This document shows, one piece after another, positions 36,667 through 47,380 of a stretch of DNA of 64,000 bases (its first letter is position 1; the number at the start of each line of letters is the position of its first letter). The translations under genes were made by a program, and so were the position numbers. Below the pieces are notes generated by a model that was not told the DNA's origin, ran no database searches, and worked only from the letters and a program-made list of their open reading frames with translations. The stretch comes from an archaeon (GTDB taxonomy: Archaea; SpSt-1190; DYHY01): assembly GCA_037442745.1 (NCBI GenBank), contig JBBIPP010000003.1, positions 30,568 through 94,567 of the forward strand. Direction: 5' to 3'.

Positions 36667-37425
36667 TTATTTATAAGTCCATTTTCCGGGAAGAACGCAT
36701 CCGGACAAGAGCCCTTCCCGCGTCAATTCGGGAAAAACATCAAGCTCAAGGCTTTTTGCCGAGTCGGGTATTTTCGAGAAAATCTCCTGCGTGAACGCGA
36801 ATATTCCGACGCTAATGAGGTGGCTCTCTGCTTCCCTCGGCTTTTCGTTGAATGAGGTTACTTTCCTTCCGGAAAGGCCGACAACCCCAAACCTGGTTGG
36901 TTTGTCAACAGTTGTAAGCGCGGCGGTTCCGAGGGAATTCGTGTTAGTGTGGAAATCTATGAATTCCCCGAGGTCGAACTCGAAGAAATTGTCGCCATAT
37001 ATCAGGAGAAAGTCCCCGTCAATCTTGCCTTTGAGTTTCTTCAGGGCAGATGCTGTGCCGTTCCTATCCTTTTGCTCAACATATTTTATATCAATTCCCG
37101 AAACTCCGGAAAGCGCTTCTTTTATCCTAAAACTAAGCTCTGTCAGTGTGCAAATTGTCGCTTTAGTTACCCCCTTTTTCCGGAGGAAAGCCATTATGTT
37201 TGTTATTGTCTGGCGACCGCCAACATCTTCAAGCGGTTTTTCGTCCCCGATAAGTATTACTGCGGGAAAAGTCTCTGAAATTAGGTATTTCTCGAGAAGA
37301 GTCTCGATTGTCCTAGACCTGTTGGACTCCCTTTTCCCTGCCCCTGAGAGGGCGTCAACCCGCTTTATCAGTTCCTCCTTCAGGGTTATTGATATGCGCT
37401 TTCTCATTGGGCGGGGAAATACCAA
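36667..37425 (-). CDS. ribbon-helix-helix (CopG-like) domain fused to a sugar nucleotidyltransferase
   Basis: N-terminal RISITLKEELIKRVDALSGAGKRESNRSRTIETLLEKYL is RHH-like. The remainder, AVILIGDEK...LIYGDNFF..., is an NTP_transferase fold. Confidence 0.5.
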   Translation of the reverse strand: MVFPRPMRKRISITLKEELIKRVDALSGAGKRESNRSRTIETLLEKYLISETFPAVILIGDEKPLEDVGGRQTITNIMAFLRKKGVTKATICTLTELSFRIKEALSGVSGIDIKYVEQKDRNGTASALKKLKGKIDGDFLLIYGDNFFEFDLGEFIDFHTNTNSLGTAALTTVDKPTRFGVVGLSGRKVTSFNEKPREAESHLISVGIFAFTQEIFSKIPDSAKSLELDVFPELTREGLLSGCVLPGKWTYK

Positions 37426-37462: not shown

Positions 37463-38560
37463 ATGAAGGCTATTGTTCTTGCGGGGGGGAAAGGGGAAGA
37501 TCTCTACCCTCTGACTCTCACGCGACCCAAGGCGCTCGCGACAATACTGAACCAGCCGATAATTGAGAGAATAATTGACAACATGCCCAAGGAAATTGAC
37601 AAGATTTTCATTGCAACCGACCACATGGCAGGGGAGATCAAAGCGCTTTTTTCCTCAAAAGAGATGAAGCGAAAAATGGGCAGGAGAAAAATATGTGTTG
37701 TTGAGGAGGATAGGCCACTTGGGACTGCCGGGTCAATAAAGCGTTTTGAAAAGGAGATAACCGAGACGTTTCTTGTTGTCCAAAGCGATGTTGTCTCTTC
37801 AGTCGACTATTTCAAGATGATTGATTTCCATAGGGAGAGCGGGTCAATTGCGACAATGTCTTCATTCAAGGTGAAAAACCCGATCGATTACGGGATTCTC
37901 GGGGTAAATGAGGAAGGGCGCGTAATGAAATTTCTCGAAAAGCCGAAAATTGACCAGGTCTTCTCGACAGTTATCAATGCGGGGGCGTATGTTTTCGAAA
38001 AATCCATTTTCGAGGAAATCCCGGCGCATGGGGTGTGCGATTTTTCGGGAGACGTCTTTCCCCGGCTTATACGAAAAGGGGGGATTGTCTCCGCATTCGA
38101 ATTCAAGGGTTTGTGGATTGACATAGGCTCGTTCAACAACTATCTTGATGCCCACAAAAACCTTCTTGAGCGGTCAATGACTTTTTCAATTTCGAGCAAA
38201 TCTTCTGCTAGTACAGTTCCCCCTGTTCTCATAGGCTCCGGTGGAAAAATCGGCGCATGCACTCTTGGTCCGGGAGTCTCTATAGGGAACAATGTGAAAA
38301 TTGGCAAAGGTGCGAAAATCTCGAATTCAGTCATCTATGACGGGGTCTCGATTGGGGATGGCTGCCTAGTAAAGGAGAGCGTTCTTGGGAAAGGGGTTGT
38401 CCTTGGGAAGAATGTTGTTGCAGTGAACACCCTGATTGGGGATGGCGCAAAAGTGAAGGACAAAATAAAGATAGGCGCCCAGAGCAAAATTTGGCCGAAA
38501 ACGAAGGTATCAAAGGATGTTCCTGAAAAGGAATGGTTCGGTTTCCTCAAGGAAGATTAG
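37463..38560 (+). CDS. bifunctional-type sugar-1-phosphate nucleotidyltransferase with C-terminal left-handed beta-helix (hexapeptide repeats)
   Basis: MKAIVLAGGKGEDLYPLT (G-x-G motif) plus C-terminal IGSGGKIGACTLGPGVSIGNNVKIGKGAKISNSVI hexapeptide repeats. Confidence 0.7.
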   Translation: MKAIVLAGGKGEDLYPLTLTRPKALATILNQPIIERIIDNMPKEIDKIFIATDHMAGEIKALFSSKEMKRKMGRRKICVVEEDRPLGTAGSIKRFEKEITETFLVVQSDVVSSVDYFKMIDFHRESGSIATMSSFKVKNPIDYGILGVNEEGRVMKFLEKPKIDQVFSTVINAGAYVFEKSIFEEIPAHGVCDFSGDVFPRLIRKGGIVSAFEFKGLWIDIGSFNNYLDAHKNLLERSMTFSISSKSSASTVPPVLIGSGGKIGACTLGPGVSIGNNVKIGKGAKISNSVIYDGVSIGDGCLVKESVLGKGVVLGKNVVAVNTLIGDGAKVKDKIKIGAQSKIWPKTKVSKDVPEKEWFGFLKED

Positions 38561-39959
38561 TTCTGTTCAGTTTGGCTTGAATTTGGCTTGTTATTTCCTC
38601 GTCAACCCTTTTGCAGAAATTCTGTAGAGATACTTTCGGAATTGATGCACCTGCCGCAATGTCGTGGCCCCCTCCAAGGCCCCCGAACTCTCCGGAGACT
38701 TTTCTCATTATTTTCGAGAGCTCCAATCCGTCCTTCACAAGCTTTCTTGTCCCCCTTGCGGAAATTTTGTATTCGTTCTCCCCTTGGGAGCTTGCCACGA
38801 GGAAAACCCGCTCGGAATCAACCAGCCTTGAACTTAGGGCAATTCCCGCGACAATTCCTATTATTGTCGGCTTGATTTCGTCCAACTGCAAGAGCTGGAC
38901 TGTTTTCCCAATTGGCTCAGTTCCCTTTGAAAGCAGAAGTTCCAATGCCTTGCTGAGGTTTTCCCTATGGAGAGCCAACAGTTCCCTTGTTTTGGCAAAT
39001 GCGCTTCCCCTCTCTCCCTGGCAGACTTTGATTCCCAAAAGAGCCTCTTCATTCCGTCCGCATGCGTTTAGGAGAGTTGAGAACTCCGTCGCATCTCGGA
39101 GCTCGGTTCCCTTGGGCTCGTTCGGGAAAACATAGTATTCGGAGATAATTCTTTTCAGCTCCCAGGGAAGGAGCCCTGCCTGTATTCCATATTGGTAGAG
39201 CCCGGTAATTAGGGCAGTTTTTCCTTCGGGAGAAAGCTCTGAGTATGTCAGTTCGTTTGGAATGCCAAGTTTCTCGAGAAATTTTACGGCTCCCTGCGGA
39301 TTTCCGGATAGCCCCTTGAAGAAAGGGTCAGTTGCAGTTGAGAGGAGGTCTGGGAGCTTTCTGGTCTCCCTTCCGAAGAAAGACACTCCTTTCTCCGCTC
39401 TGACAGTTCCCAGTTTCTCCCCGATTTCGAGTATTCTCCGGTTGAGGCCAATCAGGCCTTCTTGTCCTTGGACATCTCCGACTGCTCCGGTAATTGCCAA
39501 AGGGGCATTCTCCGGAATTTCTGAAATTTCCAGGGAAACTAGGAAAGCCAGTCCTGCGCCAGAAACTTCTTTCGACCCGGAAAACCCATGTTCAACTGCG
39601 TTCAAATGGACAATTCTTTCGGGCAAATCCGCTTTCTCCGGCTCGTGGTGGTCTATTATTACCGATTTTCCGGGCAAGTGTTCGGAAATAAGTGATATTT
39701 GTCCGCTTCCGAGATCCGTGAATATTGTTTCCCTGTCTTTCGGAACAAGGAGAATTGTTTCCCTATCCAACTGCCTTATTGGAACTAAAAGGGGGTTTTT
39801 GCCTATTTTTTTCAAAGTTCGGTCAATTATTGCCCCTGCACACAGCCCGTCAGCGTCAATGTGCGTTACAATTGTCGGGGATTCAAAACTAGCTATTGTC
39901 AGAGCAGTTTCCCTGACTTTGTTCCAAAACAGCTCCGGATTTTCTTTGTTTTCAGGCAA
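38547..39959 (-). CDS. DHH/DHHA1 phosphoesterase, archaeal RecJ/Cdc45-like (GAN-type nuclease)
   Basis: 470 aa. HIDADGLCAGAI (DHH motif I), DHH, and GGGHDIAAG (DHHA1). Sits next to the replication origin locus. Confidence 0.6.
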   Translation of the reverse strand: MPENKENPELFWNKVRETALTIASFESPTIVTHIDADGLCAGAIIDRTLKKIGKNPLLVPIRQLDRETILLVPKDRETIFTDLGSGQISLISEHLPGKSVIIDHHEPEKADLPERIVHLNAVEHGFSGSKEVSGAGLAFLVSLEISEIPENAPLAITGAVGDVQGQEGLIGLNRRILEIGEKLGTVRAEKGVSFFGRETRKLPDLLSTATDPFFKGLSGNPQGAVKFLEKLGIPNELTYSELSPEGKTALITGLYQYGIQAGLLPWELKRIISEYYVFPNEPKGTELRDATEFSTLLNACGRNEEALLGIKVCQGERGSAFAKTRELLALHRENLSKALELLLSKGTEPIGKTVQLLQLDEIKPTIIGIVAGIALSSRLVDSERVFLVASSQGENEYKISARGTRKLVKDGLELSKIMRKVSGEFGGLGGGHDIAAGASIPKVSLQNFCKRVDEEITSQIQAKLNRTNLP

Positions 39960-40017: not shown

Positions 40018-40593
40018 TCAGGAAGTTTTCCCGTCTCCGAGAACATAATAGATGCGCTCTGACAAGCCCCCCCAAGAGAACCCGCCATTAATTTTCTTCT
40101 TCTCAGCAATTTTGAAAATTCCTTCAGCAACCCCTTTTCCTAGATGATAATAAGTAAGCCGTAGGGAAAGCCTTCCGTATCTGCGGTTGTATTTTTTGTT
40201 AATTTCATATCCATAAATTGGTGTTTCTTCTCCTAGTAAAATTTCAGCAATATTGTCTCTTATTTTATGTCCAGTTTTAACTAGTTTTTTCATTTCTCTT
40301 GGAACTTTTCCTTCCTTGTCGAGAATTCCTTGCCTTATGTTTGAGCTTGTCAGGGGGAGTTTGTTCTCCCCATAGGTCAAAGGAATTTCAATTCTCATCA
40401 AAGGCATTAATCCTGCTTCCTGCCGGAGAGAGTTCAGCTCGCCAATCTGATCCTTTCCGAACGAGTTTCCTTCTCCAGTTGCAATTAACTGAAGAGATTG
40501 ATAGGATTCTATTGTTTTGTAATAATTGTCGTTGATTGATATTATTTGAAATTCTATATTCCTTCCGGACAAGTAATTCTCGAGCTGGCGCAT
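40018..40593 (-). CDS. hypothetical protein (AT-rich gene, no confident family)
   Basis: 191-aa ORF with lower GC than its neighbours. True start possibly internal. Confidence 0.3.
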   Translation of the reverse strand: MRQLENYLSGRNIEFQIISINDNYYKTIESYQSLQLIATGEGNSFGKDQIGELNSLRQEAGLMPLMRIEIPLTYGENKLPLTSSNIRQGILDKEGKVPREMKKLVKTGHKIRDNIAEILLGEETPIYGYEINKKYNRRYGRLSLRLTYYHLGKGVAEGIFKIAEKKKINGGFSWGGLSERIYYVLGDGKTS

Positions 40594-41043
40594 TCTCGTC
40601 TCAAATGTCTGGATCGCATTCCCTTCGGCAAAGTCAATGCAGACAAGGAGGTTTTTTGATAATGCAGTTAGTTTGTCAAGGAAGTCTCTCTGACCTTTGT
40701 GGAGAAAGTCAAAAGTTCCAAAACAGGCAATTGTTGGATTCTTTTTTTCTCCGGAATTTTCGATTTATCCTCTCCCTCCTTCTCTTCTTTGGGAAAATGA
40801 TTTTTCTGGGAGTCTTGCTATGTATATATAATTTTCCATATGGAAATAATGGAAATAACAACAAAAGAATCCAACTTTCCATCCGAAATGTTGGAGAGAG
40901 TATCAAAAAATTCCAGTGGAAATGAAGGTTGTCCCAAAGAGAATCCAAAATCTTCCACAGGAAACAAAGGTCAAACAACAACAATAATTAAAAACCCTTT
41001 CTTCCAATGGAAAAATCCGAGAACCGGAGTTGAAGAAATAATA
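40594..41043. other. candidate replication origin (oriC): AT-rich unwinding element plus four direct ORB-like repeats TTCCA-N2-3-GGAAA
   Basis: TTCCATATGGAAA 40834..40846, TTCCAGTGGAAA 40911..40922, TTCCACAGGAAA 40953..40964, TTCCAATGGAAA 41002..41013. TGTATATATAATTTT at 40821. Immediately upstream of orc1/cdc6–polD, the classic euryarchaeal oriC arrangement. Confidence 0.5.
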
Positions 41044-42246
41044 ATGCAGAGCTCTTTGAGGGAAATGTTCAATGCATATCTCGACAGGCAATCCATTTTC
41101 CTCAACAAGAATGCATTGTCAGATACCTATCTTCCGGAAAACCTTGTCCACAGGGAAGGGGAGCAAAAACAGATTGCCGGAATTCTTCTCCCCGCTCTAC
41201 GTGGGGAAAAGCCCTCGAACCTCTTCATTTACGGAAAAACCGGGACTGGGAAGACTCTGGGAACCCGGATTGTTTGCTTGGAACTGGAGAAATTCTCCAT
41301 TGCCCGGAACCTGCCATTGAAGGTTGTTTATGTCAATGCCCAGATGAAGAAAGTTGCAGATACAGAATATCGGCTAATTTCGAATTTGGCAGGCCAGTAT
41401 GGGGCAACTCTCCCGCCAACAGGGCTCCCTACTGAGAAAATCTATCGCGAATTCATCAAAGCAGTCGAGAATGAAAAGTCCCTTTCAATAATTGTAATTG
41501 ACGAAATAGACACCGTTGTACAGAAATGCGGGAATGAATTCCTTTACAATTTGACAAGAATTAACAACGAATTGACAAAATCAAGGGTAAGTGTTATTGG
41601 GATAACAAATGACTTGAAGCTCCTCTCGAACATTGAGTCAAGAGTAAAGTCAAGCCTCTCGGAGGAAGAGCTTGTTTTCAAGCCATATAACGCAAACCAA
41701 TTGAACGACATTCTTTCTACTCGGGCGGAAATTGCGTTCGCTCCCGGAGTAATTGACCAGTCAGTAATTCCCAAATGCTCCGCATATGCAGCAAAAGAGC
41801 ACGGAGATGCAAGAAGAGCTCTCAATTTATTGAGACTCGCTGGAGAGATTGCTGAACGGAGCGCTTCCCCAAGAATAGAAGCTGAACACGTTGACCTAGC
41901 GCTGGAAAAGCTTGATATTGACACTGTTGTCGAATTTGTGAAAAGCCAGCCTCTCCAGTCAAAAGCTGTCCTATACAGCATAATTTCATTGGAAAACTCG
42001 AAACCAGACTATACTACCGGGGATATTTACGAGAAATACCGCTCAGTCTGCGAAATATTCAGGCAGAAATGCCTTACCCAAAGAAGAGTATCCGACCTGA
42101 TAAATGAACTGACTAGCGTCGGAATTCTTGCGGCACGCGTTGTTTCCAAGGGAAGATATGGGCGGAGCAAGGCAGTTGACTTGTTGGTAAAGGGCCCTGC
42201 TTTGGACAAAATAACGAAAGCAATTTCCTCCGAAGTTGCCTATTGA
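41044..42246 (+). CDS. cdc6: Orc1/Cdc6 replication initiator
   Basis: Start reassigned to ATG 41044 (MQSSLREMFNAYLD...YLPENLVHRE about 31 aa before the conserved RE). Walker A GKTGTGKT, Walker B IIVIDEID, winged-helix C-terminus. The ORF track's 40840 start would place the ORB repeats inside coding sequence. Confidence 0.9.
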   Translation: MQSSLREMFNAYLDRQSIFLNKNALSDTYLPENLVHREGEQKQIAGILLPALRGEKPSNLFIYGKTGTGKTLGTRIVCLELEKFSIARNLPLKVVYVNAQMKKVADTEYRLISNLAGQYGATLPPTGLPTEKIYREFIKAVENEKSLSIIVIDEIDTVVQKCGNEFLYNLTRINNELTKSRVSVIGITNDLKLLSNIESRVKSSLSEEELVFKPYNANQLNDILSTRAEIAFAPGVIDQSVIPKCSAYAAKEHGDARRALNLLRLAGEIAERSASPRIEAEHVDLALEKLDIDTVVEFVKSQPLQSKAVLYSIISLENSKPDYTTGDIYEKYRSVCEIFRQKCLTQRRVSDLINELTSVGILAARVVSKGRYGRSKAVDLLVKGPALDKITKAISSEVAY

Positions 42247-42334: not shown

Positions 42335-43825
42335 ATGGCGGAGGGGGGCGACTGGGGAAAAAAACAGGGAATAGAGTCCCTTGTTGTTTCTCTGCTCTCA
42401 AAAGGAATAATGATTGCCCCGGACGCCCTCGATTTCCTGAAAATACATCCGGAAAAACTCGCTTCAATTGACCTTGATTCCCTAAATGGCGTGCTTTCTC
42501 TTGAGAACCTAAAGAACGCCAACTACCCCATCCCGGAAGTGGAAGAGTTACCAACTCCCCGGGAGGACGAAGGAGCCCGGATTCTCTATGACTATGCCGA
42601 GAAATTCGATATGAAAGGGGAATTGTCCGATTTTACCAACCATTTCAACGACAGGTACAGGAACCTGTCCGAAATGCTGAAAACCCGGGCTGAACTGAAA
42701 AACCTCTCCTCAGTCAACCGGCTCTCGTCAATCAAGGAAAGGGAGGAGGTGTCAATAATAGGTATTGTTGATTCCAAAAGGGAGACAAGGTCCGGCCATT
42801 ATATTGTGGAGGTCGAAGATCCGACAGGAGTTGCGAAAATTCTCCTCTCGAAGAACAGCCAGACAATAAAGAAAGCTGACGAGATTGTTGAGGACGAGGT
42901 AATTGGAATAACCGGAACTGCCTCAAAAGAGCTTCTATTTGCGGAGGAGGTTATTTTTCCGGACATCCCCCAAATGGGCGCCTGGCCGGGAAAAGGCAAG
43001 AACGTTGCAGTAATGATTTCGGATGTCCACATAGGTTCAAAGCAGTTCAGGCACGACTATTTCGACAACTTGGTCAACTGGCTGAACTCGAATAACGAGG
43101 TTGCGAGAAGAGTTAAATATCTCCTTGTCGCAGGCGACGTTGTCGACGGGGTTGGGGTTTACAAAGGCCAGCAAAAGGACCTTGCAATAACTGACATTGT
43201 CGGGCAGTATTCTGCGTTCGCCGACCTCCTTGACCGGCTGAATAAAAATATAAGAATATTCGTTTCCCCCGGAAACCACGACGCTTCAAGGGATTCCGAC
43301 CCCCAGCCGGCAATACCAAAGGAATTCTCAGAAGCAATCTATTCCCTGAAAAATGTTTCAATGATATCCTCCCCGGCAGTTGTCCAGCTTGACCGAGTCA
43401 ATTTCCTAATATATCACGGAACTGCCCTAGATAGCGTTATTGCCTCAATTCCTTCCCTCCGGAAAACCGGCTATGACAATCCCCACCAAGCAATGATCCA
43501 GCAGTTGAGGAAAAGGCACCTTATCCCGAGCTATAACGACATGTCAAGAATGTTTCCCGACGCGACTGACGAGATGGTAATAAAGACACTTCCGAACGTT
43601 TTCCACTCAGGCCATGTCCACAAGCTCGGGTTTTCGGCTTACAGGGGAATTAAGGTAATAAATTCCGGGACATTCCAAGACAGGACCTCTTTTCAGGTCA
43701 AAGTCGGCCACCACCCCCAGCCCGGAAAAATCCCATATATTGAGCTCGGGACGGGAGCTGTGAATGTCCTTGATTTGACTAACGAGGGGGAAGGCGGGCC
43801 GACAATCAGGGAGGAGGTTTTCTAG
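42335..43825 (+). CDS. DNA polymerase II (PolD) small subunit DP1
   Basis: 496 aa. Calcineurin-like phosphoesterase motifs (VAVMISDVHIGS, LVAGDVVDG, PGNHD). Directly upstream of DP2. Confidence 0.85.
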   Translation: MAEGGDWGKKQGIESLVVSLLSKGIMIAPDALDFLKIHPEKLASIDLDSLNGVLSLENLKNANYPIPEVEELPTPREDEGARILYDYAEKFDMKGELSDFTNHFNDRYRNLSEMLKTRAELKNLSSVNRLSSIKEREEVSIIGIVDSKRETRSGHYIVEVEDPTGVAKILLSKNSQTIKKADEIVEDEVIGITGTASKELLFAEEVIFPDIPQMGAWPGKGKNVAVMISDVHIGSKQFRHDYFDNLVNWLNSNNEVARRVKYLLVAGDVVDGVGVYKGQQKDLAITDIVGQYSAFADLLDRLNKNIRIFVSPGNHDASRDSDPQPAIPKEFSEAIYSLKNVSMISSPAVVQLDRVNFLIYHGTALDSVIASIPSLRKTGYDNPHQAMIQQLRKRHLIPSYNDMSRMFPDATDEMVIKTLPNVFHSGHVHKLGFSAYRGIKVINSGTFQDRTSFQVKVGHHPQPGKIPYIELGTGAVNVLDLTNEGEGGPTIREEVF

Positions 43826-46800
43826 ATGGCTGATGAGATAAAACTCCCAGCATCCTCCAAAGGAATTAATTCCTATTTCAGGGCAATTGAGGAGGAAGTC
43901 AACAGGGAATATTCAATTGCGAAAAAGGCGAGGGAAGCCTGCCTTGACCCGACGAATAGAGTTGAAATTGCCCTGGCATCGGACGCGGCCGCCCGGGTAG
44001 AGGGGCTCTTGGCAACAATTTATCCGAGTTTCGAGAATTCAGGGCTTGCTGAGAGAATCCGGGAACTGGAGAAAAAATTCGGCAAGGGCTCGGAGAGAAT
44101 ATCTCTCCAGATTTCCCAGGACGTTTTCGAGGAGAGGTTCATAAAATTCCCGACAATTGAGGAAAGGATAGAGGCAGGAGTGAGGGTTGGAATGGGCCAC
44201 TTGACTCTGGGAATAGTCACCGCTCCTTTGGAAGGGATTACCAAAGTGATAACGAAACCCTCCAGGAGCGGGGGGAAATATGTTTCAATATATTTTTCTG
44301 GGCCAATAAGATCGGCTGGAGGGACTGCGGCTGCGTTCGCGGTTCTCATTGCCGACTTTTTGAGGAAAAAAGCTGGGTTCTCGGAATACGACCCTGACGA
44401 GAGCGAGCTTGAAAGATATGTGGCGGAAATCGACGACTATGACACCAGAATTGTCAATCTTCAATACAGAATCAAGGGGGACGAGGTCCGGTTCCTGGTG
44501 AGACATATTCCTGTCGAGATTTCCGGGGACCCGACTGAGGAGGACGAGGTAATTGCCTTCAAAGATTTGCCGAGAATTGAGACGAACAGGATCAGGGGAG
44601 GGATGTGCTTGGTTGTTTCCTCAATTGGGCAGAAATCCACGAAACTTATCAAGAGAATCAAGAGCTATGGGGAGGAATTCAACCTGACAAACTGGCTCTT
44701 CCTCGAGGAATACGAGGTTCTGAAGAAAAAGCTCAACTCAGTCGATTCCGAAAAAGTCCAGGCGGAAAAAAAAGCGGACGGACCAGAACAGAAACTTGTC
44801 CCGAATTTCGCTTTCATGGAGGACGTCCCGGGGGGAAGACCGATTTTTTCCTTTCCATCAACTCCCGGGGGCTTTCGCCTCCGTTATGGCAGGTCTAGGA
44901 ACACAGGATTCTCGACTGATGGCATCCATCCGGCAACAACCGCAGCCCTCTCAGACTTCATTGCAATAGGAACTCAGCTGAAAATAGAAAGACCGGGCAA
45001 GGGCTCTACCGCAGTCCCGGTCGATTCAATAGAACCTCCGACAATTCTATTGACCTCCGGGGAAGTTGTCCGAGTCGAGGACCCGAAAGTTGTAAGAGAA
45101 CTCCTGACATCCAAAAAAATCAAGGAAATCCTCTTTATCGGGGACATTCTTGTTTCCTATGGCGATTTTGTCTCTAACGGCCACAAGCTTGTTCCCGTCG
45201 GCTATACTGAGGAGGAGTGGATTGGAGAGCTCCGCAAGTCAATAGAATTGGGCGGATTCGTTCCTGAAACAGCTTCTCAGTTCATTGAAATCTCCACTTT
45301 GCGGTTCCTAGAAATCCTAGAAAGTCCCCGAAGCATTGCCTTCTCAGAGGCGGTCCAAATCGGAACGAAAATGAAGATCCCCCTCAATCCGAAATATATC
45401 TATTTCTATCACCGGGTTTCACCCGAGAACATCCGCTCCCTTGCCAAGGCAATAGCCGATTCAGGAAACAATCCCACTCTCAAAATAGAGAACAAACCAG
45501 AATTGAAAAGGCCCCTTGAATTGATGTGCTTTCCCCACAAGCTAGGCCCAGACGGGCGGATAACAGCGTCTGAAGAGGATGGCCGGGCGCTAATTTTCAC
45601 ATTCGGCTTGGAATCGGACAGGGACGCTATTTTCCAGGCTCCGGAAGAAGATGAGACTGCGCTTTCCCTGTTGAACAAGGTATCGAAGCTGAAAATCAAG
45701 GACAAGGGCGGGACATACATCGGGGCGCGAATGGGGAGGCCCGAAAAAGCCGAAAGAAGGCTTCTTGACGGACGCCCCCAAGTTCTTTTCCCAGTCGGCC
45801 AGGCAGGCGGAAGGTTGAGATCAGTCAACGAAGCAGCAAAAACAATTTACAATGCGCCCGTTGCATACAGGATCTGTTCAACCTGCGGGAAGAGGAACAT
45901 TTTCCTCAAATGCGCCTGCGGAGGGGAGACAACCCAGAAGAGGGTTTGCGCAATTTGCCAGAAAATAACCGACGAACCCGTTCATTGCAATGTTCCGACC
46001 GGGTTTTCGACAATGGCTGACATTAGCCTTGAAAAGCATATCAAAACAGCCGAAGCCAAGCTAAATGAGAGGGTTCCTTCCCTAATCAAAGGAGTCAGGG
46101 GGCTTTCAAGCAAATACAAGATTCCCGAAAGAATTGAAAAAGGAGTTCTCAGGGCGAAAAACAATCTGTTCGTCAATAAGGACGGGACAATAAGGTTTGA
46201 CTCTACAGACTTGCCACTGACACATTTCAAGCCAAAAGAAATTGGGACAAAGGTAGAAACCCTCCTGAAGCTAGGATATGACAAGGATGTTGACGGAAAA
46301 CCCCTTTCAAGCGATGATCAGATATTGGAACTAAAGCCCCAAGACATAATTCTCTCGGACTTTGAGGACACTAAAAGGCAGATAATGAGCGGGGCGGACT
46401 ATTTCGTCCGGATAGCTAACTATGTTGACGAGCTTTTGGTGAAATTCTACGGCCTTGAACCATATTACAACATATTGACAAAGGAGGATTTGGCCGGCCA
46501 TTTGGTAATAGGCCTTGCCCCCCACACCTCGGCAGGGATTGTCGGGAGATTAATCGGGTTTAACAAGGCAAGGGCTGGCTTTGCCCACCCAATGTTCCAT
46601 GCAGCGAAAAGAAGGGACTGCGATGGGGACGAGGATTCCGTCCTGTTGCTGATGGAAGCGCTCCTCGATTTCTCGCGGGAATTCCTTCCATCAACTAGAG
46701 GCTCCTCGACAATGGATGTTCCTCTGGTCTTGACAACAATCCTAGATCCGGCGGAGGTCGACGACCAAGTCCATGAGTTAGATATTGCGCGGGTTTACCC

Positions 46801-47380
46801 GACTGAACTATATGACAAATCCCGGGACTATCTTCCCCCCTCTTCCCTGGAAAAACCGATTGAGAGAATCAAGCACAGGCTAGGGAAAGAGGGCCAATAT
46901 GAGGGGATGTGGTATACCCACGAGACATCAAGCATATTGAACGGGACGTCAATAACAAGATACCGCTTCCTGGGAGCAATGGTCGAGAAGGTTACCGAGC
47001 AATTGGAACTGGCGGAGAGGGTGCTTGCAGTTAACGAGCACGACGTTGCCAACCTGGTTCTCTCAACGCACTTTATCCGTGACATCAAGGGGAATATGAG
47101 AACCTTCTGCCGGCAGTCCTTCCGGTGCATCAAATGCAACGCGAAATACAGAAGGGTCCCCCTTGCCGGGAAATGCATGAAATGCAAAGGAAAACTAGTC
47201 CTGACAGTCCACCAAGGGACGATTGAGAAATATCTCGAAGCCTCGAAGAAAATCTCCGAGAAATACAACGTTCCTCCGTATATGAAGCAAGAATTATTGA
47301 TTCTTCAGAAAAGGCTGTCCGCGATGTTTGGGAAGGAGAACCAGAAGGGGTTGGACGAGTTTTTTGGGAAGGTTTGTTGA
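43826..47380 (+). CDS. DNA polymerase II (PolD) large catalytic subunit DP2
   Basis: 1184 aa. Zn-binding CSTCGKRN...CACGG and CIKCNAKY...CMKCKG clusters. Canonical length, no intein. Confidence 0.9.
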   Translation: MADEIKLPASSKGINSYFRAIEEEVNREYSIAKKAREACLDPTNRVEIALASDAAARVEGLLATIYPSFENSGLAERIRELEKKFGKGSERISLQISQDVFEERFIKFPTIEERIEAGVRVGMGHLTLGIVTAPLEGITKVITKPSRSGGKYVSIYFSGPIRSAGGTAAAFAVLIADFLRKKAGFSEYDPDESELERYVAEIDDYDTRIVNLQYRIKGDEVRFLVRHIPVEISGDPTEEDEVIAFKDLPRIETNRIRGGMCLVVSSIGQKSTKLIKRIKSYGEEFNLTNWLFLEEYEVLKKKLNSVDSEKVQAEKKADGPEQKLVPNFAFMEDVPGGRPIFSFPSTPGGFRLRYGRSRNTGFSTDGIHPATTAALSDFIAIGTQLKIERPGKGSTAVPVDSIEPPTILLTSGEVVRVEDPKVVRELLTSKKIKEILFIGDILVSYGDFVSNGHKLVPVGYTEEEWIGELRKSIELGGFVPETASQFIEISTLRFLEILESPRSIAFSEAVQIGTKMKIPLNPKYIYFYHRVSPENIRSLAKAIADSGNNPTLKIENKPELKRPLELMCFPHKLGPDGRITASEEDGRALIFTFGLESDRDAIFQAPEEDETALSLLNKVSKLKIKDKGGTYIGARMGRPEKAERRLLDGRPQVLFPVGQAGGRLRSVNEAAKTIYNAPVAYRICSTCGKRNIFLKCACGGETTQKRVCAICQKITDEPVHCNVPTGFSTMADISLEKHIKTAEAKLNERVPSLIKGVRGLSSKYKIPERIEKGVLRAKNNLFVNKDGTIRFDSTDLPLTHFKPKEIGTKVETLLKLGYDKDVDGKPLSSDDQILELKPQDIILSDFEDTKRQIMSGADYFVRIANYVDELLVKFYGLEPYYNILTKEDLAGHLVIGLAPHTSAGIVGRLIGFNKARAGFAHPMFHAAKRRDCDGDEDSVLLLMEALLDFSREFLPSTRGSSTMDVPLVLTTILDPAEVDDQVHELDIARVYPTELYDKSRDYLPPSSLEKPIERIKHRLGKEGQYEGMWYTHETSSILNGTSITRYRFLGAMVEKVTEQLELAERVLAVNEHDVANLVLSTHFIRDIKGNMRTFCRQSFRCIKCNAKYRRVPLAGKCMKCKGKLVLTVHQGTIEKYLEASKKISEKYNVPPYMKQELLILQKRLSAMFGKENQKGLDEFFGKVC

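Follow-up and report, generated by a model that had tools for sequence, protein, structure and literature searches.

The window, the whole 64-kb stretch of archaeal DNA analysed here, carries a candidate chromosomal replication origin (oriC) beside its orc1/cdc6 gene. The true intergenic region at this place is 40765–41043, between a divergent PPAT-like gene and orc1/cdc6, and a Pfam scan of the window's proteins gives the gene order oriC-cdc6-DP1-DP2 with these genes around it:

38547–39959, minus strand: RecJ/GAN-like gene (DHH, DHH_CID and DHHA1 domains)
40018–40764, minus strand: PPAT-like gene, which sets the left border of the intergenic region
41044–42246, plus strand: orc1/cdc6 coding sequence, 400 aa with the N-terminus MQSSLREMF (Cdc6_lid, Cdc6_C and AAA domains)
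42335–43825: PolD small subunit (DP1)
43826–47380: PolD large subunit (DP2)

An initial annotation of this DNA had described a run of non-coding repeats at 40594–41043, next to orc1/cdc6, polD1 and polD2 and with a RecJ/GAN nuclease just upstream, and had called this a euryarchaeal origin setting. The neighbourhood of orc1/cdc6 and the two PolD genes is as described, and the RecJ/GAN gene is present but separated from the region by the PPAT-like gene, to which the left part of that interval (40594–40764) belongs as coding sequence. The nearest named relatives of the window are Aenigmatarchaeota, Nanoarchaeota and Woesearchaeota, all of them DPANN lineages and not Euryarchaeota. A search of the locus, and of the complete window, against Rfam gave one tRNA at 63.7 kb and no other RNA family.

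Two sets of loci were used for comparison. A scan of genome contigs reached at best 54% identity to the window and thus gave no close relative; the close loci come from a search of encoding contigs: L001–L006, with Cdc6 proteins 70–95% identical to that of the window (L001 is closest, 95%) and synteny kept. Their intergenic regions and that of the window make up the seven-locus alignment. The distant set consists of 80 diverse DPANN cdc6 loci whose Cdc6 proteins are ~50% identical. A weight matrix for the origin recognition box (ORB) was built from sites of the orthologous loci only, with the window's own sites excluded, and was scanned over the 64 kb. The elements between the two divergent genes, from left to right, are:

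40775–40795, minus strand: degenerate distal inverted ORB candidate, "ORB-L", TTCCCAAAGAAGAGAAGGAGG; 8.4 bits, which is noise level
40796–40876: candidate duplex-unwinding element (DUE), 81 bp, 73% AT, with a T-rich left arm and an A-rich right arm
40823–40831, minus strand: TATA-like tract TATATATAA, with GGAAAA upstream of it on the minus strand
40833–40846: perfect 14-bp palindrome TTTCCATATGGAAA, family consensus TTTCYATATRGAAA
40877–40897, plus strand: ORB-a, TTCCATCCGAAATGTTGGAGA, with the variant core TCCA-N3-GAAA; 14.9–17.8 bits
40911–40931, plus strand: ORB-b, TTCCAGTGGAAATGAAGGTTG; 23.6 bits, 9 of 12 core positions invariant
40953–40973, plus strand: ORB-c, TTCCACAGGAAACAAAGGTCA; 29.6 bits, the top hit of the window, kept in all seven loci
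40983–40994, plus strand: A-rich spacer between ORB-c and ORB-d, ending in the TATA-like box AATAATTAAAAA
40992–41012, minus strand: ORB-d, inverted, minus-strand sequence TTCCATTGGAAGAAAGGGTTT; 23.7 bits
41026–41033, plus strand: Shine-Dalgarno-like GGAGTTGA, 10 nt before ATG 41044

The clustering of ORB sequences at this place is far beyond chance. Exact matches to TTCCANNGGAAA (TTCCA-N2-GGAAA) occur three times in the window, all on the plus strand (40911, 40953 and 41002), and dinucleotide-preserving shuffles contain on average 0.56 such matches per window; from this density we estimate that the probability of finding three within 102 bp is of the order of 1e-6. The three best matrix hits of the window are ORB-c, ORB-d and ORB-b, and the matrix maxima in 20 shuffled windows lie between 9.8 and 18.8 bits. 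The extended consensus over the seven loci is TTCCAC(T/C)GGAAAC(A/G)AAGGT, and the first 17 bases of ORB-b (TTCCAGTGGAAATGAAGG) are the reverse complement of the Pyrococcus furiosus ORB1 oligonucleotide, TTCCAGTGGAAATGAAAC..., which Cdc6 bound in gel shifts (PMC1904270). Each of the three plus-strand ORBs is a dyad of the TTCCA-N-TGGAA type with a GG(T/A) tail behind it. ORB cores are 0.79–0.89 identical to the window across the seven loci versus 0.25–0.46 for the spacers, so the conserved blocks of the intergenic alignment coincide with DNA motifs and not with codons. The initial annotation had pointed to orthologous loci as a place to look for the motif, and there it is kept, both in the alignment and in matrix scans.

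The four TTCCA-N2-3-GGAAA copies that had been reported at 40834, 40911, 40953 and 41002 are all found at those positions, but they are not four equivalent ORBs in one orientation. The copy at 40834 is part of the palindrome (below), and the plus-strand ORB-a, which has 8 of its 12 core positions unchanged across the seven loci and keeps its location in all of them, had been overlooked. Because the core TTCC-N3-GGAA is nearly palindromic, the orientation of an ORB must be read from its tail. At 41002 the minus-strand reading scores 23.7 bits versus 12.9 for the plus-strand reading, the G-string lies on the left, and L002–L006 have a good ORB on the minus strand only (TTCCAGTGGAAAAAGGGGTTT and similar). 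This copy is ORB-d, inverted relative to those at 40911 and 40953, and the actual order is a>, b>, c>, <d; the cdc6 gene begins 32 nt past it. The core-to-core distance from ORB-c to ORB-d is constant at 49–50 bp in all seven loci, and that from ORB-b to ORB-c is 31 bp in most relatives and 41–42 bp in the window and L001, about one helical turn more. Such fixed or turn-wise spacings suggest helical-phase constraints on the array.

The same signals recur well beyond the close relatives. Among the 80 distant DPANN loci, TCCAnnGGAA occurs at 2.08 per kb upstream of cdc6 versus 0.045 per kb elsewhere (~46-fold), and a relaxed ORB pattern at 4.30 versus 0.054 per kb (~80-fold). Plus-strand ORBs of these loci peak at −150 to −50 relative to cdc6, and minus-strand ORBs at −50 to 0 and again distally; the layout of the window is alike.

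Left of the tandem ORBs lies the least stable DNA of the window. Its weakest 30-bp duplex is 40819–40848, and the 50-mer 40818–40867 ranks second; across 40796–40876 the AT skew turns from −0.30 to +0.38, and the alternating AT tract that had been noted beside the repeats (TGTATATATAATTTT) is indeed present at 40821–40835. This AT-rich stretch has ORB-a on its right, and on its left only the 8.4-bit ORB-L, which overlaps the Shine-Dalgarno sequence of the divergent gene, AAGGAGGG (40781–40774). A minus-strand ORB-like site occurs at the ORB-L position in five of the six loci L001–L006 (10.7–19.5 bits; none in L005), and a distal minus-strand ORB is found at the corresponding position in distant DPANN loci, so that in relatives and distant loci the order is distal minus ORB, palindrome, plus ORB. 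On sequence alone, the ORB-L signal is inseparable from conservation of the Shine-Dalgarno sequence.

Two promoter-like elements are embedded in this arrangement. TATAT within TATATATAA is invariant in the seven loci, and the tract together with GGAAAA fits the archaeal consensus of a TATA box and its transcription factor B recognition element (BRE), so that we take it to be the promoter of the divergent gene. On the cdc6 side TAAAAACC (40988–40997) is invariant in the seven loci, TTTATATACC or TTTAAATACC takes its place in distant DPANN loci, where it stands between a plus ORB and the proximal minus ORB, and AATAATTAAAAA is probably the TATA box of the cdc6 promoter.

The most conserved element of the region is the 14-bp palindrome, with 12 of its 14 positions invariant in the seven loci. 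The sequence TTCCATATGGAAA (40834–40846), which was initially counted as the first ORB copy, lies inside it and has N3 spacing; the corresponding sequences of relatives, TTTCCATATAGAAA or TTTCTATATAGAAA, destroy the ORB core and keep the palindrome TTTCYATATRGAAA. It occurs once in the window, with the T-rich arm on its left and the A-rich arm on its right. Exact copies are present in 8 of the 80 distant loci, seven of the eight lying 126–408 bp upstream of cdc6, and allowing at most one mismatch gives 23 hits in the 35 kb of upstream DNA (22 loci) versus 10 in 458 kb elsewhere, so that roughly one in four of these loci has the palindrome upstream of cdc6. There, too, it sits inside an AT-rich stretch between a distal minus ORB and a plus ORB; the layout of L011, for example, is ORB(−) at −189, palindrome at −126, ORB(+) at −73 and ORB(−) at −18. 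Copies of the palindrome (locus coordinates) include:

L011, 2875–2888
L014, 2774–2787
L045, 2869–2882
L056, 2842–2855
L061, 2776–2789
L081, 2674–2687
L085, 2593–2606

The composition of the two strands changes at the same place. Raw GC skew (2-kb windows, cumulative) proved to be dominated by coding-strand effects, and AT, GC and amino/keto skews were hence taken at codon third positions and expressed on the plus strand (AT3, GC3 and MK3, respectively). Cumulative AT3 and the cumulative amino/keto skew both have their minimum at 40555, and cumulative GC3 has its maximum at 40363. For all three skews the best breakpoint lies between a gene that ends at 40593 and the next, which starts at 40840 (z = 12.9, −6.7 and 13.5 for AT3, GC3 and MK3), values that none of 2000 gene-order permutations reached, and the shift is visible in genes on both strands. 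To the right of the site the plus strand has C > G and A > T, the AT component being stronger than the GC component in the window. Two further relatives with Cdc6 ~72% identical, L087 (AT3 z = 5.9) and L088 (GC3 z = −8.6), switch at the same intergenic region, and the right-minus-left difference in AT3 is positive in 42 of 55 diverse DPANN cdc6 loci. The initial annotation would have recognized the origin by a GC-skew minimum, but in this lineage the sign is reversed: cumulative GC3 peaks at the locus, and cumulative AT3 has its minimum there.

All of this presupposes that 40840–41043 is not part of cdc6. In the window the reading frame runs on without a stop for 81 codons upstream of 41044, with ATGs at 40840, 40849 and 40888, and the public annotation of GCA_964492285.1 calls a 468-aa Cdc6 product, so the segment could in principle encode a lineage-specific Lys/Asn-rich N-terminal extension. 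Among the seven loci, however, the frame is open only in the window: all six orthologous loci have an in-frame stop 3–18 codons 5′ of the conserved ATG, four of the six have no alternative cdc6 start codon at all, and even L001 has ATA where the window has ATG 40840 and differs from the window by indels of 1, 1 and 2 nt, which shift the frame. Cdc6 homologues are ~400 aa long and match only the last 80–93% of the 468-aa open reading frame (best 120 of ~8000); its residues 1–68 are aligned by none of these 120, and the few long homologues match through translated ORBs. Alignment of the N-termini of relatives, a check that had been suggested from the outset, shows the MQSSL start to be common to many homologues and to coincide with ATG 41044 in the window, which is also the start that the Shine-Dalgarno-like sequence precedes; GGTGA-type motifs stand at the equivalent place in orthologues. 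With conservation following DNA motifs rather than codons, a genuine extension is extremely improbable, and the 468-aa reading frame from ATG 40840 is, by these comparisons, an annotation artefact. The initial annotation had drawn the same conclusions, that Cdc6 starts at 41044 and that the repeats are non-coding, and both hold; in a detail, 35 residues and not 31 precede the conserved HRE motif, which begins at H36.

Other public Cdc6 calls (P0054, P0079, P0035 and P0051, 428–470 aa) carry the N-terminal peptides "TGNGGV" or "SIGNGGV". These peptides are translations of the classical ORB ...CCACAGGAAACGGAGGGGT, so the N-extensions are false, and mis-annotation of ORBs as the Cdc6 N-terminus is recurrent.

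Taken together, the conserved ORBs, the weakest duplex adjoining them, the switch in strand composition and the adjacency to cdc6 bear out the initial assignment of the locus as oriC, and 40765–41043 is very probably where chromosome replication starts in an uncultivated DPANN-like archaeon, a functional origin of the oriC1 type. Several observations weigh against this. Taken in 2-kb windows, raw GC skew gives no signal here; ORB-L, the inverted site on the left, does not rise above noise in the window and overlaps a Shine-Dalgarno sequence, so that a layout of inverted ORBs flanking a DUE is only weakly realized on the left, and the clear inverted pair ORB-c/ORB-d encloses only an 18-bp spacer. 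The skew runs against the bacterial rule, with a presumed leading strand rich in C and A, and this polarity would by itself suggest a terminus. Finally, ORB-bearing origins can be dispensable: both the ORB-bearing oriC and cdc6 are reported to be dispensable in Thermococcus kodakarensis (PMC5663688).

This last point bears on a reading in which the ORB cluster is only a promoter/operator through which cdc6 is autoregulated, or a dormant origin, with replication starting elsewhere or by recombination. The positions of the proximal sites would suit an operator, ORB-d lying directly past the TATA-like box, 32–52 nt before the ATG, and ORB-c just upstream of the box. Yet the AT-rich weakest duplex and the distal ORBs are outside such a promoter, and a third-position skew switch in the window and two relatives requires long use of the site as a replication polarity boundary; since autoregulation and origin function are compatible, we consider a role in cdc6 control without origin activity improbable. 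A terminus, or a recombination or inversion breakpoint with coincidental ORB-like repeats, would account for the skew switch and, by the bacterial rule, for its direction (C > G on the plus strand rightward). But it would be very unlikely for such a site to coincide in three genomes with conserved ORBs, with cdc6 and with the least stable duplex, AT3 changes in the same sense at most of the 55 DPANN cdc6 loci, and mapped haloarchaeal origins show the same inverted polarity (PMC1868953); we give this explanation almost no credence.

If the locus acts as an origin, as we favour, its elements suggest how it might work. Each of ORB-a to ORB-d would be bound by Orc1/Cdc6 monomers, whose polarity the G-rich tail would determine, and the opposed sites around the AT-rich stretch would direct MCM loading and melting at 40796–40876, centred on the palindrome. 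ORB-a would form the right border of the unwinding zone, and the weak minus-strand site at 40775–40795 its left border. The 18-bp spacer between ORB-c and ORB-d is not the DUE, because it is too short by comparison with the 130-bp ORB3-DUE-ORB2 unit of Sulfolobus; these two convergent ORBs would instead clamp the cdc6 TATA box, so that initiator occupancy might repress cdc6 transcription.

The role of the palindrome is a matter for a more tentative proposal, namely that it is a DPANN-wide, origin-specific cis element, a functional counterpart (unrelated in sequence) of the ucm motif of Sulfolobus, bound by a dimeric factor and needed for firing or control; we regard this as possible, though somewhat doubtful. 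UBP, the protein that binds ucm, is a crenarchaeal protein. The putative binder of the palindrome would be a protein other than Orc1/Cdc6, or Orc1/Cdc6 in a different mode, and a TrmB-family regulator is one candidate: a divergent TrmB-family gene is the left neighbour in 13 of 21 palindrome-bearing loci versus 6 of 59 without the palindrome, an association that could reflect either phylogeny or a cognate binder. No TrmB homologue is encoded within the window's 64 kb. Binding by the C-terminal domain of the PPAT-like protein (below) was considered and rejected, as only 5 of the 80 distant loci encode this domain, and its distribution does not follow that of the palindrome. Nor does a promoter role for the left gene explain the palindrome in general, since the two are 41 to 528 bp apart in distant loci, although in the window the left arm of the palindrome may double as a BRE. 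A full-text literature search with four sequence variants of the palindrome returned nothing relevant, and the element is not described in the searchable literature.

The TrmB-family genes (~260 aa) that diverge from cdc6 are found in many Woesearchaeota-like loci, among them:

L011, 1680–2465, minus strand: TrmB-family gene
L045, 1946–2713, minus strand: TrmB-family gene
L056, 1776–2573, minus strand: TrmB-family gene
L081, 1554–2339, minus strand: TrmB-family gene

Outside the intergenic region an isolated ORB-like sequence, TTCCTCCGGAAAAAGGGGGTA at 37168–37188 on the minus strand, scored above all shuffles (20.2 bits); it lies 3.7 kb to the left in an NTP_transferase gene. It lies within coding sequence and scores 12.6 bits in L001, and its resemblance to an ORB is probably due to chance or to coding.

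The divergent PPAT-like gene has some peculiarities of its own. Pfam CTP_transf_like covers residues 14–145 of its product, NCBIfam PPAT subfamily models give hits below their cut-off, and the PPAT structure PDB 3do8 is matched. This cytidylyltransferase domain begins upstream of Met 40593, and the catalytic motif GTFDFLHKGQ, encoded at ~40710–40740, is likewise upstream of that internal Met, from which the public annotation starts a shortened product of 191 aa. No ATG, GTG or TTG is present between the stop at 40767–40765 and the GTFDFLHKGQ motif, and ATC 40764–40762 is the sole candidate start; among relatives the start is non-canonical in L005, ATG in L002 and L004, and GTG in L003 and L006. 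The protein's C-terminal domain of ~90 aa (residues ~160–248, 40018–40300) is far more conserved than the enzyme domain and has the motifs YGYxINKKY...LSLRLTYYHL...GGFSWGG...ERxYY; Pfam gives no match for it, and AlphaFold models it with low confidence (predicted local distance difference test 47–66).

To our knowledge, DPANN replication origins have not been studied experimentally. The locus provides a precise conserved origin map for this group, with ORB orientations, a candidate DUE and a cdc6 promoter, and it corrects a recurrent false Cdc6 N-terminus. Its position can serve as an anchor for peak-to-trough estimates of growth rate on these metagenome-assembled genomes, and software that looks for an origin at a GC-skew minimum would place it wrongly in this lineage. 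DPANN archaea have a minimal replication machinery, and the central palindrome is a candidate site at which a second origin factor might act; if its proposed role is true, the palindrome and the inverted skew polarity together would characterize an origin architecture specific to DPANN.

ORBs, an adjacent cdc6, cdc6-dp1-dp2 synteny and AT-rich DNA are textbook features of archaeal origins, and the origin itself is ordinary in kind; what is out of the ordinary is the conserved central palindrome and the AT-dominated inverted skew polarity. Its closest likeness in gene order is to the oriC of Pyrococcus and other Thermococcales, which has the same oriC-cdc6-DP1-DP2 arrangement, several ORBs of which one is inverted, and AT-rich stretches (PMC1904270), and whose ORB core is shared, the window's TTCCAGTGGAAATGAA being the 17-base match to P. 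furiosus ORB1 described above. The 34-bp Pyrococcus ORB has a long ...CTCTGGGGGG tail, whereas that of the window is a short GG(T/A) placed 4–5 nt after the core. In contrast to Thermococcales, no second ORB cluster was found inside dp1 of the window, where matrix hits are at noise level (9–12 bits), and unlike that of Pyrococcus its origin is compact (~280 bp), with a central 14-bp palindrome. Tandem same-orientation repeats of ORB type beside cdc6 are also a feature of Methanothermobacter thermautotrophicus oriC, which has many direct 13-bp mini-ORBs (cited in PMC1904270), and because of this, direct arrays such as ORB-a to ORB-c are not unprecedented; the window differs in having three direct copies plus inverted ones, with a conserved tail.

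Sulfolobus oriC1 has the order ORB3-DUE-ORB2, with the ucm motif midway between ORB2 and ORB3 and bound by UBP (PMC12141716). The window resembles it in having an AT-rich stretch beside orc1-1 or its counterpart, between ORB-a and the opposed but only candidate ORB-L, and a conserved non-ORB motif roughly midway, and differs from it in the weakness of that left ORB and in the three tandem ORBs on the cdc6 side. The central elements also differ, ucm being the non-palindromic ATTATACAAAC (deduced from oligonucleotides in PMC12141716), which a sequence search did not find in 40765–41043, and that of the window the palindromic TTTCYATATRGAAA. Haloarchaeal oriC1 belongs to another lineage with a different GC content, and its ORB tail is much longer than that of the window, where in addition AT skew exceeds GC skew; it nevertheless shares with the locus described here a cumulative G/C-disparity peak, a C-rich leading strand, adjacency to cdc6 and inverted ORBs with a G-rich tail (PMC1868953, PMC4010727).

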